In this document: in pieces, positions 4,770-45,790 of the stretch
Position numbering within the stretch: position 1 is the stretch's first letter
Layout: every line of letters begins with the position of its first letter
Virus genome (UHGV): UHGV-0125821
Length of the DNA: 64,000 nucleotides
Reading direction: 5' to 3' (one strand)
From: a virus
Program-made: the position numbers and the translations under genes
Notes under the pieces: generated by a model
What the model was told of the DNA's origin: nothing
Seen by the model: the letters and a program-made list of their open reading frames with translations, nothing else
Database searches by the model: none

Positions 4770-6130
4770 GTCTGGTTAATTGGGAGGAGCACCGCGCCCG
4801 CTTTATAGCGTTGCGTGAAGAAAAAGGGATCACTGTAAAGGAATACTGTGAGGAGCATGGCCTTAGCTTCAATACAGCCAGAAAGCATCTCAATATGAAA
4901 AAAAATGAGGTGCGGTCGCAGGTAAAGACAACAAAAAAAAGCACCAAATCACCTGAAAAAAAACGGGCGGGAAGAGCAACAAAAAAGCTGGAAGAGGGTG
5001 TAGAAAAAACAAAATTTACAGAAATTGACAATTCGCAGGGCGCAGGTTCTTTCCGAAGTATGCCGAGAAAGAAAACTTCGGATCATGAAAATAATTCAAA
5101 TAATAACAATAAGATAAAAGAATCTGTCAGGAGATCATTGCGCGAAAAAATGGCGAAAATGATCCCCGAAGAAGATAAAAACGCCCCAAAAATTGAGGGA
5201 TCTTCTGCAATGATCCATGACGGTGCTGTGCAGCGAGCCACATTGCCAACTACGAATGTGGCTCGCGATATGATGAAGAACGGCGCAGAAGAACACCTGC
5301 GGTTAGCAATTCAAATGGCGCAAGAGCGCGCACTTCAGTATCAAAGCATTGTTGATCAGGAGGCCGAACGTCTACAGGCGGAAATAGACGCCTTGGGCGA
5401 TAAAGAGCCAGAAGGAATGCACCCTGGGCAGCGCCTTCTCGGTCTAATCAGTGACGCGGCCTACTACATGAATGATTTTATCAGTAGGTTGGCAGCTATA
5501 TATCAGTCCGAACAAAAGCTGCGACAGGGGGATGAAAAGCTTCGTCAGAGCGCTCGCCAGCAAGCATTCAAAGAGGCTGAGGCCAGAGAAAAACTCGAAT
5601 TAGCACGCCTACAGGCCGAACAGCGTGGCAAAGAGATTGAATATCGCATTGGCGCTGACGCACGCGCAGCCAGAGTTATCGCCGCCGCTATACGTATGCG
5701 TGAGCGCGAGGAACTGGATGATATCGGTGTTGCTGAATACATCGAGCGCCAGGGTGTCAGCGTCCCGGCTATCCTCGCGGCGCGCGCGGCGAAAGCTATC
5801 ACTCTTCTCGAACCACCTGTTTCTGACGTCAATGATGTTGATGATGAACAGCTGGACAAAGAGGCAAGGGAGTTTGCAACGCTTCAGGCTAACCATCCGC
5901 AATGGCTGGCAGAGCGCCGGGCGGATGTGGCAACCATTGTTGAAGAATTGGGGTGCGGAGATTACGACCGCAATGGCGAGCGTAAAGCTGGAGAATTCGA
6001 GGCCAACGACGAAGAGCTGGATATTGACCCTTCGGCAACGGCTGAAATTTACGGTGATTATGATGCATCTGATGCAGGGTATGACGCCGGAGATGATGAT
6101 ATCGCGATAGAACCGCCGGAGGATGATTAA
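4766..6130 (+). CDS. pacA: terminase small subunit (PacA-like)
   Basis: precedes and is translationally coupled to large terminase; N-terminal HTH-like region, acidic C-terminus; start moved to ATG 4766. Confidence 0.65.
   Translation: MSLVNWEEHRARFIALREEKGITVKEYCEEHGLSFNTARKHLNMKKNEVRSQVKTTKKSTKSPEKKRAGRATKKLEEGVEKTKFTEIDNSQGAGSFRSMPRKKTSDHENNSNNNNKIKESVRRSLREKMAKMIPEEDKNAPKIEGSSAMIHDGAVQRATLPTTNVARDMMKNGAEEHLRLAIQMAQERALQYQSIVDQEAERLQAEIDALGDKEPEGMHPGQRLLGLISDAAYYMNDFISRLAAIYQSEQKLRQGDEKLRQSARQQAFKEAEAREKLELARLQAEQRGKEIEYRIGADARAARVIAAAIRMREREELDDIGVAEYIERQGVSVPAILAARAAKAITLLEPPVSDVNDVDDEQLDKEAREFATLQANHPQWLAERRADVATIVEELGCGDYDRNGERKAGEFEANDEELDIDPSATAEIYGDYDASDAGYDAGDDDIAIEPPEDD
5080..5217. 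other. candidate pac site: five GATC-containing hexamers in 136 bp
   Basis: GATC at 5081, 5134, 5162, 5200, 5213 inside 5-prime part of pacA-like gene. Confidence 0.4.
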
Positions 6131-7638
6131 TGGCTGGCGGGCGCAAGATTAAATGCGTCACCAGAGATCCACGCTGGCGCGATATGGTAATCAAATACCG
6201 CTACAACTTTACCCAGGCTGTTGTCGATATTTTTGGGATGTTCCCCTCCCAGCAGCAGCAGCAGATCATTCAGTCCGTACAGGAAACGGGGAGTAGGACT
6301 ACCGTCACGTCCGGACACGGAACGGGGAAGTCGTCCCTTACCGCGATGTTGCTGTTGATTTTTATGATCCTGTTCCCCGATGCCCGTGTCATCATTGTTG
6401 CTAACAAGATAGGCCAGGTAAAAACAGGCGTATTCAAATACGTTAAACAGTATTGGGCGAATGCAGTTAAGCGTCATGGGTGGTTGCAGACCTATTTTGT
6501 CCTCTCTGACACCATGTTTTATGAGCGCTCCCGTAAGGGGATTTGGGAAGTTCTCTGCAAAGGTTATCGACTCGGCAACGAAGAAGCGCTGGCGGGGGAA
6601 CACGCGGCACATTTGCTTCTAATTCTGGATGAAGCATCTGGTATATCTGATAAGGCGATCGGCGTAATGACCGGTGCTCTTACTGAAGAAGATAACCGGA
6701 TGTTGATGCTATCCCAGCCAACAAGGCCAAGTGGTTATTTCTACGATTCGCACCATTCTCGAGCAAAAACCCCAGACAACCCGAAAGGGATCTGGACAGC
6801 AATTGTTCTTAACTCGGAAGAATCACCGTTCGTCACACCACAATTCATCAAGGAGAAGCTTCTGGAATATGGCGGGCGCGATTCTATTGAGTACATGGTC
6901 AAGGTGCTTGGTCAGTTCCCACGAGAAATTAACGGCTATTTGCTTGGTCGTGATGAATGCGATCGCGCTGCTCGCCGCAAGGTGTTGTTGGAGAAAAACT
7001 GGGGATGGGTGGCAACGGCTGACGTTGGTAATGGGCGAGATAAGTCGGTCCTCAACATCTGCAAGGTATCAGGTCACAGGGATAAGCGGCGCGTTGTTAA
7101 CTTTAAGGTAATGGAGATGCCTGGCACTATGGACCCATTGGCCTTTGCTGACTTCATATATAACGAATGTACGCCGGAAAAATACCCGAATATAACAATC
7201 GCGGTTGATGCTGATGGTTTTGGTTCTGATACGTGTGCGCAGTTGGTGCGTCGTGGTGCGAACCCGGTACGTATTCGGTGGGGAAAACCCATGTTTGCGA
7301 ACAAAGACAGGGAGCGATTTGTTAATCAGCGTGCCTACGCAAATATTATGGCGCGTGATGCCATAAAGTCAGGGCGTATGCGGATAGACAGTGACCCTAA
7401 AACGGCAGAGCAAGCGTCAAAAATCCCCTTTTTACTGAATGAAGAAGGGAAAATGGCGATGATGCGCAAAGAGCACATGCGGCAAAAGCTAAACATCAAA
7501 TCGCCTGACCGATGGGATACCTACTGCTTCACTATGCTGGTGGACTATGTGCCTGCTAATGAAGATATTGGTGCCGAAATGGCAACTTTCCGAGATCAGG
7601 TTCTGGCGGATATCGAAATGCCGGATCTGGATATATAA
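6130..7638 (+). CDS. pacB: terminase large subunit (PacB-like)
   Basis: Walker A GHGTGKS, Walker B-like LLILDEA, nuclease-like C-terminal half. Confidence 0.75.
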   Translation: MAGGRKIKCVTRDPRWRDMVIKYRYNFTQAVVDIFGMFPSQQQQQIIQSVQETGSRTTVTSGHGTGKSSLTAMLLLIFMILFPDARVIIVANKIGQVKTGVFKYVKQYWANAVKRHGWLQTYFVLSDTMFYERSRKGIWEVLCKGYRLGNEEALAGEHAAHLLLILDEASGISDKAIGVMTGALTEEDNRMLMLSQPTRPSGYFYDSHHSRAKTPDNPKGIWTAIVLNSEESPFVTPQFIKEKLLEYGGRDSIEYMVKVLGQFPREINGYLLGRDECDRAARRKVLLEKNWGWVATADVGNGRDKSVLNICKVSGHRDKRRVVNFKVMEMPGTMDPLAFADFIYNECTPEKYPNITIAVDADGFGSDTCAQLVRRGANPVRIRWGKPMFANKDRERFVNQRAYANIMARDAIKSGRMRIDSDPKTAEQASKIPFLLNEEGKMAMMRKEHMRQKLNIKSPDRWDTYCFTMLVDYVPANEDIGAEMATFRDQVLADIEMPDLDI

Positions 7639-7665
7639 AGCCCCGCGATGCGGGGCCGGTTGTGA

Positions 7666-8703
7666 TTACCAGAGCTTCGCGGCGTACTGCGTTTGGGGGA
7701 ATGTGTATCCGTAACGTTCTTCGATTGCTTTGCCGTATTTTTTACGAGCTTCATTCAGTTTAATGCCGGTCAGGTCGTCTCCAGAGGCCATCATTACGTC
7801 TAACAATTCCAGATCCATTTTATCCAGCCTTGCCATTGCTTCACGTGATGTACGTATCTTACGCTCAATGATATGGCGAATAGCCGGATCGGCATCCTCC
7901 AGCATCTTAGCGGATTTCTGCTTAAGGCTTTCATTGCGAATATCGATGTTCCTTAAGATGTACGACTTCGCAACGTAGCTTGGCTGGTGTTTTTCCAGGT
8001 CACGAACACGATATAAGTTAAAATCGCCGAGAAGGCTGCAAGGTACCGATTCGACGCCAGAATAAATTGTAATGCTCCGGCGTTCACCAACATTATTGAC
8101 AACGGGGATCGTTGTCTTCGGTAGTCTTGCGAAAACCAATGCACCATGTGCGCCAACTCTAAAGCGAGAAAGGGCATTGCTGCCTTCGATGTTTGTTGTC
8201 AGCACAACATCTGTATATGCCTCTTTACGCGCCCGGTAGATCTCGCCTTCAGGCTCAGCTTCAAAGAAGCGCTGTTCTTCTTCAAGATCGCCTACGATTT
8301 GAGAAAAAACCCTATTTTTCAGGCTTTTCTTTATGATTTTGTCGTATTTTTTTAGCAATTGTTCACGTGTAAATGTACGTGTTGTTGTAGCGCTTTGCAC
8401 AACGACATGCGTGCTTTGATTGGTGTCCTCAATGATGAATGGGATCGGAGAATATACAGACTCAACAATGTTCGACGCTTTGCCGTCGGCATCGCGGCAC
8501 ATGTCAACGAAGGCTTTCCATTCAGCAAGACATTTTTCAGCTTCTTCTAATATGTTTTGGTCATGCGTTAATGCAACATGGCGGAATTCCTCGCCAGCAT
8601 AACTGGTATCATGGAAAACAGAGTTTGCGACCACCAGCTCTTTCCACCGTTCAGCGGTTTGCAGGAACCGTTTGTACTCTTTCTCGATCGACTTCTTACT
8701 CAT
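7666..8703 (-). CDS. hypothetical 345-aa protein at the position of the P1 c1 repressor
   Basis: antisense between pacB-like and rox/dre; operator-like motif 20 bp upstream of its start; function not established. Confidence 0.6.
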   Translation of the reverse strand: MSKKSIEKEYKRFLQTAERWKELVVANSVFHDTSYAGEEFRHVALTHDQNILEEAEKCLAEWKAFVDMCRDADGKASNIVESVYSPIPFIIEDTNQSTHVVVQSATTTRTFTREQLLKKYDKIIKKSLKNRVFSQIVGDLEEEQRFFEAEPEGEIYRARKEAYTDVVLTTNIEGSNALSRFRVGAHGALVFARLPKTTIPVVNNVGERRSITIYSGVESVPCSLLGDFNLYRVRDLEKHQPSYVAKSYILRNIDIRNESLKQKSAKMLEDADPAIRHIIERKIRTSREAMARLDKMDLELLDVMMASGDDLTGIKLNEARKKYGKAIEERYGYTFPQTQYAAKLW

Positions 8704-8718
8704 TATTCCTACTCGATT

Positions 8719-8738
8719 TAGTTTTCTAACATAAAATT
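8719..8738. promoter_or_regulatory. operator-like motif copy
   Basis: TTATGTTAGAAAACTAAATC on minus strand. Confidence 0.45.
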
Positions 8739-8914
8739 ACTATGACAAATTTATGTCGAATAACAGAGTGAGTAAAGGATCGAACTGTGATTTTTTGTCA
8801 TCAATTTTAGAAAACCAACCGTAGAAACCACACTTCGCAAATTAAAGACCATGAAGGCAACGTGTTACTGGTCATCATCAATCTATGATGGGTTAAAAAA
8901 AAATCGGCATTTTA

Positions 8915-8946
8915 TAACTTTAAATAATTGGCATTATTTAAAGTTA
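8915..8946. other. rox-like recombination site
   Basis: TAACTTTAAATAATTGGCATTATTTAAAGTTA; reverse complement equals the rox sequence as I recall it. Confidence 0.85.
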
Positions 8947-8955
8947 GGCTATAAT
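8928..8955 (+). promoter_or_regulatory. sigma70-like promoter overlapping rox
   Basis: -35 TTGGCA (8928-8933), 16-bp spacer, -10 TATAAT (8950-8955), pointing toward dre. Confidence 0.45.
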
Positions 8956-9098
8956 CATGTGTAGATGAACAGTATTGACATCACTGAAAATACGTACCTC
9001 GAATCAAAGGCTTGTATTTTGAAAATTAACTTATAGCTACCCTGTCATTTTTATATTTTTCGCGTAGCATCATCTGTATATAGAGGTGAAATAGTTTC

Positions 9099-10127
9099 AT
9101 GAGTGAATTGATTATCTCTGGCAGTTCCGGTGGTTTTCTGCGCAACATTGGCAAAGAGTACCAGGAAGCCGCAGAAAACTTTATGCGGTTCATGAATGAC
9201 CAGGGGGCTTATGCGCCGAATACTCTGCGCGACCTCCGGTTGGTGTTTCATTCCTGGGCGCGCTGGTGTCACGCTCGCCAGCTTGCCTGGTTTCCGATCT
9301 CACCAGAAATGGCCCGCGAGTATTTTCTTCAGTTGCATGATGCCGATCTGGCTTCGACCACCATTGATAAGCACTACGCCATGCTTAACATGCTGCTTTC
9401 TCATTGTGGCCTTCCGCCACTTTCGGATGATAAAAGTGTTTCTCTGGCTATGCGGCGTATCCGGCGCGAAGCGGCAACGGAAAAAGGCGAACGAACAGGC
9501 CAGGCTATACCGCTGCGATGGGACGACCTGAAACTGCTCGACGTCCTGTTGTCCAGGTCAGAACGGCTGGTGGACCTGCGCAACCGGGCTTTTCTCTTTG
9601 TTGCATACAATACGCTGATGCGTATGTCGGAAATCTCGCGTATTCGTGTAGGAGATCTGGACCAAACAGGTGACACCGTCACGCTACATATTTCACACAC
9701 GAAGACAATAACGACCGCCGCCGGGCTTGATAAGGTGCTTTCCCGTCGCACTACTGCTGTGCTGAATGACTGGCTGGATGTTTCCGGGCTTCGTGAACAT
9801 CCTGACGCGGTGCTGTTCCCGCCGATACACCGTAGCAATAAGGCCAGGATTACGACAACGCCCCTTACTGCACCTGCAATGGAGAAAATATTCAGCGACG
9901 CCTGGGTGTTGCTGAATAAAAGGGATGCCGCGCCAAACAAAGGGAGATACCGGACGTGGACCGGGCATAGTGCTCGTGTCGGGGCCGCTATCGATATGGC
10001 TGAAAAGCAGGTGTCTATGGTGGAGATCATGCAGGAAGGAACCTGGAAGAAACCGGAAACACTTATGCGGTATCTGCGCCGTGGCGGTGTGTCTGTGGGG
10101 GCTAATAGCCGCTTGATGGATTCGTAG
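9099..10127 (+). CDS. dre: Cre-family tyrosine recombinase (Dre-like)
   Basis: blocks shared with Cre from memory: SWARWC, WFP, AYNTLMRMSEISRIRV, WTGHSARVGAAIDMA. Confidence 0.9.
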   Translation: MSELIISGSSGGFLRNIGKEYQEAAENFMRFMNDQGAYAPNTLRDLRLVFHSWARWCHARQLAWFPISPEMAREYFLQLHDADLASTTIDKHYAMLNMLLSHCGLPPLSDDKSVSLAMRRIRREAATEKGERTGQAIPLRWDDLKLLDVLLSRSERLVDLRNRAFLFVAYNTLMRMSEISRIRVGDLDQTGDTVTLHISHTKTITTAAGLDKVLSRRTTAVLNDWLDVSGLREHPDAVLFPPIHRSNKARITTTPLTAPAMEKIFSDAWVLLNKRDAAPNKGRYRTWTGHSARVGAAIDMAEKQVSMVEIMQEGTWKKPETLMRYLRRGGVSVGANSRLMDS

Positions 10128-14343: not shown

Positions 14344-14733
14344 TCATATAGCAGGACTATCATCAAATTCACCGCCCCTGGCGTCATTGATAATGTGGGT
14401 GATCACACCAAAAACAGCATTACTACCCGTGTAACCATCGTCATCTACTGGTAACGCCTCTTTCTTCCCGGTGCTTAAATCCTCCAGGTGCTGGCGCGGA
14501 TACTTCCGGTATCTTTTTACGCGATATTCCCCCTCCATAGCGCATATAAGCAGTGAGCCATCAACCGGAGTAAGTGAGGAATCAACCACCAGCAAAGCAC
14601 CTTGCAATATTCCCTCACGGTGATGGCTGTCTGCCGCCCGCATGAAGTAGGTCGCTGAAGGATGTCTGATTAGTTGCTGATCAAGAGAAATACGGCTCTC
14701 TGCATAATCCGCCGCAGGAGAAGGGAAGCCCAT
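14344..14733 (-). CDS. humD: UmuD-prime-like protein
   Basis: GFPSPAADY...HPSATYF...FGV(I/V)xH core of UmuD C-terminal domain, no N-terminal cleavage arm. Confidence 0.8.
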   Translation of the reverse strand: MGFPSPAADYAESRISLDQQLIRHPSATYFMRAADSHHREGILQGALLVVDSSLTPVDGSLLICAMEGEYRVKRYRKYPRQHLEDLSTGKKEALPVDDDGYTGSNAVFGVITHIINDARGGEFDDSPAI

Positions 14734-14751: not shown

Positions 14752-14771
14752 TACTGTTTATTCATACAGTA
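14752..14771. promoter_or_regulatory. LexA box
   Basis: TACTGTTTATTCATACAGTA (CTGT-N8-ACAG) about 20 bp upstream of humD start. Confidence 0.6.
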
Positions 14772-14832: not shown

Positions 14833-15225
14833 TCACATTGGTGGCGTGAACTTGCCATTCATATATTGCAAAATGCTTGACTCAATTTTTTCATTAAAAT
14901 CAGAATGATGCTCCTCAAGGACAAAGCGCGCCTTATTGTTGCGCACAATAACCTCCGCCAACGGACTAACCAGAGATGTGGAGTTAGAGATTTTCTCGGC
15001 GCGCTCTACATCGCTTTTAAACGTTACGATGAAGTGCTGGTGGCCTGGTGACCGGCGACACAACATGCGTCGCACTTCCACGGTATCTTCACGGCCTTGA
15101 GTATGTACAGGAAAGCTATCGACCACCGCTGTATTGGTGCGGATTGTCTGCATAGAACGCGTGTTGTCGTGATAGTTAAGCATGTTTAATGTCTTCCCCA
15201 TCTTGCCGTTATTTTCTTGGTGCAT
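14833..15225 (-). CDS. hypothetical protein
   Basis: ORF between humD and hot. Confidence 0.55.
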
Positions 15226-20630: not shown

Positions 20631-20667
20631 ATGTTAGAAAACTAAAATCAATGTTCTAACACATTTT
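20631..20667. promoter_or_regulatory. inverted pair of operator-like motifs
   Basis: ATGTTAGAAAACTAAAAT and TGTTCTAACACA facing each other. Confidence 0.5.
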
Positions 20668-24953: not shown

Positions 24954-25532
24954 ATGCAGAAACAGAGCTATTGGGAGAAACAGAGACAAAAAGCCATGCA
25001 AAAATTGGCTGACCCAGCCTGGCGAGAGGAACAAAGGGCAAAGCGCCTTCAACAAGCTCAACGCCAGCAGCAACGAGCGAGAGAAAAAGCCGCATCGCCT
25101 GAATATCGGCAAAAGAGAATTGAAAAAGCAAAGCAATATGACCAGCGGAGAAAAGAGAAAACTGTATCCGCTCCGTCCAAAAAAACACGCACGTCACGCG
25201 GCCTGAAGGGCAGATCACTCACAGCCGATGAACGCCGGATACAGACCGCTATCGGTACTCTCCCCTGCATTGCCTGCCATATTCACGGGCAACATAGCCC
25301 AGTGGTATCCCTGCACCATATCTTCGGGAGAACGGCAGAGAACGCGCATAAATATGTCCTCCCTTTGTGTAAATGGCACCACCAGTACGCAGCGCCAGCC
25401 GAGGTCCGAGAACAATATCCCTGGCTGGTCCCTGTTCATGCTGACGGAAAAATAGGCGGAAAAGCAGATTTCATGCGGCACAATGCCGATGAAATGACGT
25501 TATATCAGATGGCGATTGAATTGATAAATTAG
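24954..25532 (+). CDS. ref: HNH-type endonuclease, Ref-like
   Basis: LPCIACHIHG ... LHHIFGRT ... LCKWHHQ His/Cys motifs; similarity to P1 Ref is from memory. Confidence 0.6.
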   Translation: MQKQSYWEKQRQKAMQKLADPAWREEQRAKRLQQAQRQQQRAREKAASPEYRQKRIEKAKQYDQRRKEKTVSAPSKKTRTSRGLKGRSLTADERRIQTAIGTLPCIACHIHGQHSPVVSLHHIFGRTAENAHKYVLPLCKWHHQYAAPAEVREQYPWLVPVHADGKIGGKADFMRHNADEMTLYQMAIELIN

Positions 25533-25548
25533 TTTTCTAACATTTTAA
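25531..25548. promoter_or_regulatory. operator-like motif copy
   Basis: AAATGTTAGAAAACT on minus strand. Confidence 0.45.
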
Positions 25549-45744: not shown

Positions 45745-45764
45745 AACTCTAATGATTTGTGTTA

Positions 45765-45790
45765 GAAAACTAAAATTAAATCACATAACA
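45765..45790. promoter_or_regulatory. operator-like motif copy
   Basis: TTTGTGTTAGAAAACTAAAATTAAATC between divergent genes. Confidence 0.5.

Follow-up and report, generated by a model that had tools for sequence, protein, structure and literature searches.

A promoter-like element overlapping rox and directed at the Dre recombinase gene of a D6-type phage-plasmid

The recombination site rox of a D6-type phage-plasmid overlaps a near-consensus sigma-70 promoter-like element that matches 11 of 12 consensus positions and is directed at dre, the gene of the Dre recombinase. We consider it likely, on the sequence data presented below, that this element is a real promoter (P_rox), which would then probably serve dre and the co-oriented genes downstream as their main promoter. 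Autorepression of dre by occlusion of P_rox is plausible, and we rate the chance that the proposal holds as a whole, i.e. that a Dre-repressed promoter drives dre, at slightly better than even. Dre/rox is a widely used genome-engineering tool, and we found nothing on the natural control of Dre expression in the accessible literature that was searched.

The rox site and the promoter-like element

We analysed a stretch of viral DNA of 64,000 nucleotides (UHGV virus genome UHGV-0125821), referred to as the window. The surroundings of rox are 99% identical to the phage D6 records AY753669 and MF356679, and judged by sequence the source of the element is a D6-type phage-plasmid. The dre product is 99.7% identical to Dre of AY753669, carries the Pfam domain PF00589 and matches Cre structures with E = 5e-69; the family alignment shows no variation at its catalytic residues R175, K202, H290, R293, W316 and Y325. 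The PDB copy that we searched held no Dre-DNA structure. Dre proteins at least 80% identical are encoded by ~190 PLSDB plasmids from Escherichia, Salmonella and Shigella. The features of the locus are as follows.

6130-7638, + strand: pacB
7666-8703, - strand: c1 repressor gene, divergent from dre (annotated c1 in AY753669)
8915-8946: rox, the Dre recombination site, a perfect inverted repeat (rox in AY753669, at the homologous position)
8928-8933, + strand: -35-like hexamer TTGGCA, 5/6 consensus
8934-8949, + strand: 16-nt promoter spacer (13 nt of the right rox arm and the 3-nt linker GGC)
8950-8955, + strand: -10 hexamer TATAAT, 6/6 consensus, 3 bp beyond rox
8961-8963 (~8962), + strand: predicted transcription start, from the spacing to the -10
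8962-9098, + strand: predicted 5' leader of dre mRNA, ~137 nt
8970-8980, + strand: conserved island CAGTATTGACA, containing a perfect TTGACA (8975-8980)
9083-9089, + strand: Shine-Dalgarno sequence GAGGTGA, 9 nt before the dre ATG, kept in relatives
9099-10127, + strand: dre, Cre-family tyrosine recombinase, 342 aa

Between the convergent genes pacB and c1 lies a G+C-rich hairpin (7639-7657) of eight pairs, seven of them G-C, which is followed on the minus strand by a T-rich tail and is likely a terminator. Because c1 is divergent and this terminator-like hairpin separates it from pacB, dre needs a promoter within the c1-dre intergenic gap, which comprises 395 nt and is 69% A+T. Downstream of dre, co-oriented ORFs, a dUTPase gene among them, are tightly packed.

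The 32 bp of rox form a perfect 14+4+14 palindrome with a left arm (8915-8928), an asymmetric core TGGC (8929-8932) and a right arm (8933-8946), and match exactly the published rox, TAACTTTAAATAAT-GCCA-ATTATTTAAAGTTA, read as the reverse complement. The -35-like hexamer consists of the TGGC core flanked by one arm base on each side, the T that ends the left arm and the A that begins the right one. It occupies positions 2-7, i.e. the central six base pairs, of the 8-bp crossover region ATTGGCAT (8927-8934; numbering after Chuang et al., PMC4777119). The original prediction had placed TTGGCA inside the core of rox, followed after 16 bp by TATAAT just outside the site and oriented toward dre, and the sequence reads exactly so. 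The hexamers are close to TTGACA and TATAAT and lie within the 16-18 bp spacing of sigma-70 promoters, the spacer being one below the optimum. The start of dre follows the -10 after 144 nt on the same strand, and no + strand terminator or terminator-like site was found between 8955 and 9099. Transcription typically starts 6-8 nt past the -10. With a start at ~8962, rox spans about -47 to -16, which is the classic position of a repressor; rox thus overlaps core promoter elements of dre, as would be found in a recombinase gene that is repressed through its own site.

We compared the element with chance expectation and with competing candidates, using a position weight matrix built from the classic frequencies. 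TTGGCA/16/TATAAT was the sole match of at least 11/12 positions on both strands of the window and scored 13.5 bits, the second best value in the window. First-order Markov sequences of window size contained 1.2 such sites on average and the window contained one, so that the element is not significant window-wide. Within the c1-dre gap, the probability of a site of at least 11/12 was ~0.018 (one strand, with the gap's own 69% A+T), and against the local A+T-rich background TTGGCA/16/TATAAT scored 11.9 bits, making it the top + strand candidate there. The next + strand candidates were TTGACA/18/TCGAAT (8975-9004) with 8.7 bits and CTGTCA/17/TAGCAT (9042-9070) with 8.2 bits, both with poor -10 hexamers. 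The claim of a near-consensus promoter-like element overlapping rox and directed at dre is upheld, the element being the best + strand candidate upstream of the gene. A leftward promoter across rox, similar to P2coi of phage P1, was rejected: minus-strand hexamers matched at most 6/12 positions (by eye) and the best score near rox was ~5 bits.

The match could be fortuitous, with dre driven by one of the two weaker candidates. One 11/12 site per 64 kb is what chance predicts, accidental promoter-like matches are favoured in rox as it is A+T-rich and palindromic, and lox-like arms ending in TATAAT yield -10-like hexamers unaided. In addition, TTGACA (8975-8980) and the CCTGTCA...CGTAGC block each form a conserved island of their own. 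However, these alternative promoters score at least 3 bits lower, TCGAAT lacks the A at position 2, TAGCGT, the form of the other -10 in relatives, matches 3 of 6 positions, and a site as good as that at rox is improbable in the gap. Taking also the conservation described below into account, we regard a fortuitous match as unlikely.

The predicted leader was searched for signals of its own. We discarded a structured leader, as folding was not unusual (z = 0.28), and a known RNA, the only Rfam match being IS128 with 21.9 bits against a gathering score of 80. A small leader ORF at 8966-9037 (23 codons, by eye) was discarded as well, its ATG being missing in L106 and other relatives. The island CAGTATTGACA reaches 1.52 bit over ten lineages and is conserved down to 56% Dre identity; the sole -10 candidate downstream of it, TCGAAT at 8999-9004, is poor and not conserved in relatives. 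A second leader island, TTTTTCGCGTAGC, carries the CTGTCA/17/TAGCAT candidate. Conservation of the two islands may hint at further regulation.

Conservation among Dre relatives

Loci of Dre relatives came from collections of genomes, viruses and metagenomes, supplemented by look-ups of identical proteins. Exact-pattern scans for rox variants returned the same 33 contigs from the viral collection, and 20 contigs with few new lineages from the metagenomes. We calculated the information per position for ten lineages spanning 64-100% Dre identity. Upstream of rox, alignment was essentially impossible (0.39 bit per position), and the 3-nt linker past rox, which read GGC, GTA, TCA, GGT, TGC, GTG, GCG or TAG, reached 0.5 bit. 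The -10 hexamer stood at 1.42 bit compared with 0.86 bit for the next 18 nt. It was TATAAT in six of the ten lineages, TATGAT in L165 and TATTCT in L170; a usable -10 was lost in the remaining two, L163 (TATAAC) and L167 (where it is absent and the sequence reads GCTAGC).

Among 42 distinct sequences of the D6 clade, TATAAT was present in 39. The hexamer at -35 was TTGGCA in 34 of these 42, TTAGCA, TTAGTA and TGGGAG in two each, and TGGGGA and TTGGAG in one each. The natural cores TAGC, TAGT, GGGG, TGGA followed by G, and GGGA followed by G weaken or abolish the -35, and seven of eight variant-core sequences keep the -10 as TATAAT or TATGAT. This pattern suggests that the -10 behaves like a selected element and that the -35 drifts with the crossover sequence: conservation above the flanks in diverged relatives, as in a sigma-70 promoter under selection, was found for the -10, and the -35 was less well kept. 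Variation of the natural core and the two lineages without a -10 are in line with a fortuitous match, but the rox-adjacent -10 is a sharp conserved island amid diverged sequence, which argues for P_rox as a real promoter.

Natural core variants were seen in L103, L111, L114/L226, L165/L166, L209, L213 and L223. To judge from engineered rox cores, these variants may no longer recombine with standard rox. Engineered changes at crossover positions 2, 3, 6 and 7 still allow efficient self-recombination (PMC4777119), showing that Dre does not need TTGGCA. Distant sites in Pantoea have the identical TTGGCA core with no -10 at +19, and hence the promoter is not the reason for the conservation of the core. 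From this distribution it appears more likely that the -10 arose beside a pre-existing -35-like core.

Instead of promoting transcription, the conserved TATAAT might serve recombination, for instance by offering Dre or a host protein an additional contact or a bend in the DNA. Its constant 3-bp separation from the arm, seen in nearly all sequences of the D6 clade, would fit such a role. However, the 32-bp rox alone suffices as a target in heterologous hosts (PMC4777119, PMC4957104), and the other side of the palindrome, at 0.39 bit, has no comparable conserved element. We consider a role in recombination highly improbable.

At loci L082-L113 and L206-L225, two upstream haplotypes of rox (atgatgg...tttta and cgcggaaagg...atttc) and two downstream haplotypes (catgtgtagatgaacagt and catgggtagatgatcagt) were distinguished. 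All four combinations of upstream and downstream flank occur in natural populations, indicating natural exchange at or near rox, which leaves the promoter elements unaltered. An A/G polymorphism of the left arm, TAACTTTA[A/G]ATAAT, breaks the palindrome and travels mostly with the upstream haplotype. In the window, 8898-8921, before the middle of rox, and the adjoining 8922-8945 form a 24-nt direct repeat of 75% identity (AAAAAATCGGCATTTTATAACTTT / AAATAATTGGCATTATTTAAAGTT); it is confined to one upstream haplotype and could represent an additional, degenerate half-site or a coincidence favoured by A+T-rich sequence.

Predicted control by Dre and other regulators

As established for Cre, a dimer of this type grips the core of loxP together with both arms. 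A Dre dimer bound in this manner to rox (about -47 to -16) would have to exclude sigma region 4 from the -35, and joint occupancy by Dre and RNA polymerase would be impossible; polymerase already bound should in turn hinder Dre. On Dre-free DNA, such as a newly injected genome, the near-consensus P_rox would fire and produce a burst of Dre. Accumulating Dre would then fill rox and shut off P_rox, holding Dre near the level needed to occupy the site, which would just suffice for cyclisation and multimer resolution. Read most simply, the arrangement would thus provide negative autoregulation through occlusion.

A further part of the original prediction, that the promoter couples the recombination state to expression, is not supported, since exchange between two rox sites restores the same core and flanks. 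Products of cyclisation or multimer resolution carry an identical promoter, and the promoter therefore cannot report past recombination. Occupancy or synapsis of rox alone, rather than the product of recombination, could matter for expression.

Both D6 GenBank records (AY753669, MF356679) lack a promoter annotation at rox. The literature that we searched on Dre/rox, D6-like plasmids and Cre, which did not include the original description of rox (reportedly by Sauer and McDermott in 2004), contained no mention of a promoter in rox and no start-site or footprint data for P_rox.

Other regulators may act at the locus, and the corresponding sequence signals are as follows.

8721-8732, + strand: C1-operator-like motif GTTTTCTAACAT
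8804-8815, - strand: inverted second copy of the C1-operator-like motif
20631-20642 (- strand), 25532-25543 (+ strand) and 45759-45770 (- strand): further C1-operator-like copies
8955-8974: weak LexA-box-like sequence TCATGTGTAGATGAACAGTA (ATG-N10-CAG) over the predicted start, heterology index 11.7

The C1-operator-like motif reads GTTTTCTAAMAT / GTTTTCTAA(C/A)AT, with the extended consensus ATTTTAGTTTTCTAACAT. Five copies are present in the window compared with 1.0 expected, and none of 100 shuffles reached five. The copies at 8721 and 8804 flank candidate c1 promoters, and those at 20631 and 25532 coincide with other high-scoring promoter-like sites. GTTTTCTAA(C/A)AT resembles the P1 C1 operator and is probably the D6-type C1 operator; the c1 homologues carry the domain PF27008 (Phage_P7_repressor_C1). 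Between 8880 and 9098 the motif was not found, the best match having 3 mismatches in 12, and we therefore rejected control of P_rox by C1. With no C1-operator-like motif in this interval, P_rox would be open in lysogens and another brake would be needed.

P_rox could be real and yet constitutive or governed mainly by the host rather than by Dre, through LexA at 8955-8974 or, in relatives bearing GATC, through Dam. We scored LexA boxes by a heterology index from a matrix rebuilt from E. coli sites, with TACTG(TA)5CAGTA as the reference box. The box overlapping the predicted start is the third-best LexA-like position in the window, and with the same rebuilt matrix the P1 box scored 7.2. Some relatives have a canonical CTG-N10-CAG (L162, L116 and L169), a LexA box and Dam sites are annotated beside lox in P1, many D6-like variants carry GATC inside the LexA-like box, and Pantoea relatives carry GATC pairs around the site-adjacent promoter. 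In the window, however, ATG replaces the critical CTG of the box, GATC does not occur between 8779 and 9098, and the box is absent in L106, L114 and L170. Moreover, any protein on -47 to -16 should still exclude RNA polymerase. We think it rather unlikely that the host and not Dre is mainly in control; the box at 8955-8974 may correspond, in decayed form, to the LexA box annotated next to lox in P1.

Elsewhere in the window, 14752-14771 is a strong palindromic LexA box (TACTGTATGAATAAACAGTA, heterology index 2.3 with the rebuilt matrix). Two minus-strand ORFs flank it (14344-14733 and 14833-15225), and it overlaps the promoter-like site TTCACA/18/TATACT at 14797-14768; it is probably an SOS-controlled promoter for the 129-aa ORF.

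Comparison with known systems and significance

Phage P1 is the obvious comparison. P1 and D6 have homologous recombinases (~42% identity), a homologous type of site and the same order of c1, site and recombinase gene, with the site upstream of and co-oriented with the gene. In the P1 record, lox ends at 17 and the cre promoters lie at 104-129, 283-312 and 400-424 (named pR1/P3cre, pR2/P2cre and pR3/P1cre). A minimum of 87 bp thus separates them from the end of lox, none overlapping the site, whereas the D6 element sits on rox. The P1 promoter closest to lox is the leftward, LexA-controlled P2coi (41-68), which points away from cre, and the P1 record annotates a LexA box and Dam sites beside lox. 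The last ~60 nt before dre (9040-9098; CCCTGTCA...TTTTTCGCGTAGC...AGAGGTGAAA...ATG) align with the P1 sequence preceding cra and not with that preceding cre (shared ATTTCGCGTAGCG...AGAGGTGAAA...ATG; P1 side, L171 116-206), which indicates that D6 is without cra and the pR2/pR3 region. An inverted repeat, CGCTACGT/ACGTAGCG, is present in P1 and in the clade with ~55% Dre identity; D6 retains its right half only.

Recombinases that control their own genes are known from transposons. In Tn3, promoters lie inside res and binding of the resolvase TnpR autoregulates its own gene, which has been described as allowing a burst of synthesis on entering a new host (PMC7157771). Tn3 and gamma-delta employ a serine recombinase and a three-subsite res between the divergent genes tnpA and tnpR, and their regulation was shown experimentally; D6 has a single simple 32-bp site and a tyrosine recombinase. 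In Tn5401, the tyrosine recombinase TnpI modulates expression by binding to irs, which contains the promoter of its own gene (PMC7157771). This irs is complex, with extra TnpI-binding repeats, and resides on a transposon, and unlike Dre, TnpI is not a Cre-family protein. According to the title of Lane et al. 1986, ResD (D protein) of the F plasmid, acting at rfsF, is both repressor and resolvase (PMC7157771). As far as the title goes, ResD resembles the proposal for Dre in being a plasmid multimer-resolution recombinase that doubles as a repressor.

In the ColE1 cer site, the internal promoter Pcer (Rcd RNA) links the state of a multimer-resolution site to expression. A regulatory RNA is made from Pcer in response to the synaptic architecture peculiar to multimers. 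Coupling of this kind had been proposed for rox; in contrast to cer, nothing in rox gives a multimer-specific signal, and the transcript would be a recombinase mRNA.

We asked how sites and promoter-like signals are arranged in the wider family. A lox/rox-like palindrome lies 125-270 bp upstream of the gene in nearly all Enterobacterales Dre/Cre relatives. For 85 non-redundant sites, which are phylogenetically non-independent, we counted promoter-like signals overlapping or abutting the site. Signals toward the gene averaged 9.7 bits and those pointing away 7.3 bits; 30 sites had a gene-ward signal of at least 11 bits and four had one in the other direction (Wilcoxon p = 1.5e-7). This bias is suggestive only, since the sites are not independent and arms ending in TATAAT create -10-like hexamers. 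The elements cluster at registers -8, +19 (D6 clade) and +38. In one register the -10 is inside the left arm (L116, L117 and L169: TTTACA/16/TATAAT; 56-57% Dre identity), in that of the D6 clade the -35 is in the crossover core, and in Pantoea the -35 lies immediately outside the right arm (ATGACA/17/TATGAT, in many cases accompanied by Dam sites).

In L116, L117 and L169, the left-arm element is followed by a canonical LexA-type box TACTGTATGCTTGATCAGGT and then by TTGACA. Pantoea, Erwinia and relatives (L035, L037, L040, L041, L043, L053, L057, L060, L061, L066, L070 and L072) have the block GGATCC-N7-GATCC-GGG-TATGAT-N3-GATC directly 3' of the lox-like site, i.e. a promoter-like -10 at +38 amid Dam sites, which recalls the Dam-regulated P1 cre promoter.

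That a resolvase acts as its own repressor is already established; the gain here is a new example and a possible family-wide pattern, without a new mechanism. By its arrangement, P_rox is a probable further example of the resolvase self-repression known from TnpR of Tn3 and TnpI of Tn5401, unlike P1. For users of the tool, rox supplies a one-directional near-consensus -35, and a -10-like hexamer 16-18 bp downstream could make a promoter in bacterial constructs. Heterospecific rox cores such as rox12 alter the hexamer yet recombine with themselves (PMC4777119), offering a ready means of separating the function in transcription from that in recombination.

Excess Cre-type activity is harmful in lysogens. 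If P_rox is real and repressed by Dre, the D6 circuit would be simpler than that of P1, with one strong self-switched promoter, and this would explain a recombinase burst on infection and a low steady level in lysogens. More tentatively, the sites of the relatives raise the possibility, which we hold to be doubtful, that overlap of site and promoter is a general, repeatedly evolved design of Cre/Dre-type systems and not a peculiarity of D6. If true, the six base pairs that set recombination specificity would, in the D6 register, double as the -35, and core changes that block recombination between elements would also reset the recombinase output of each element.
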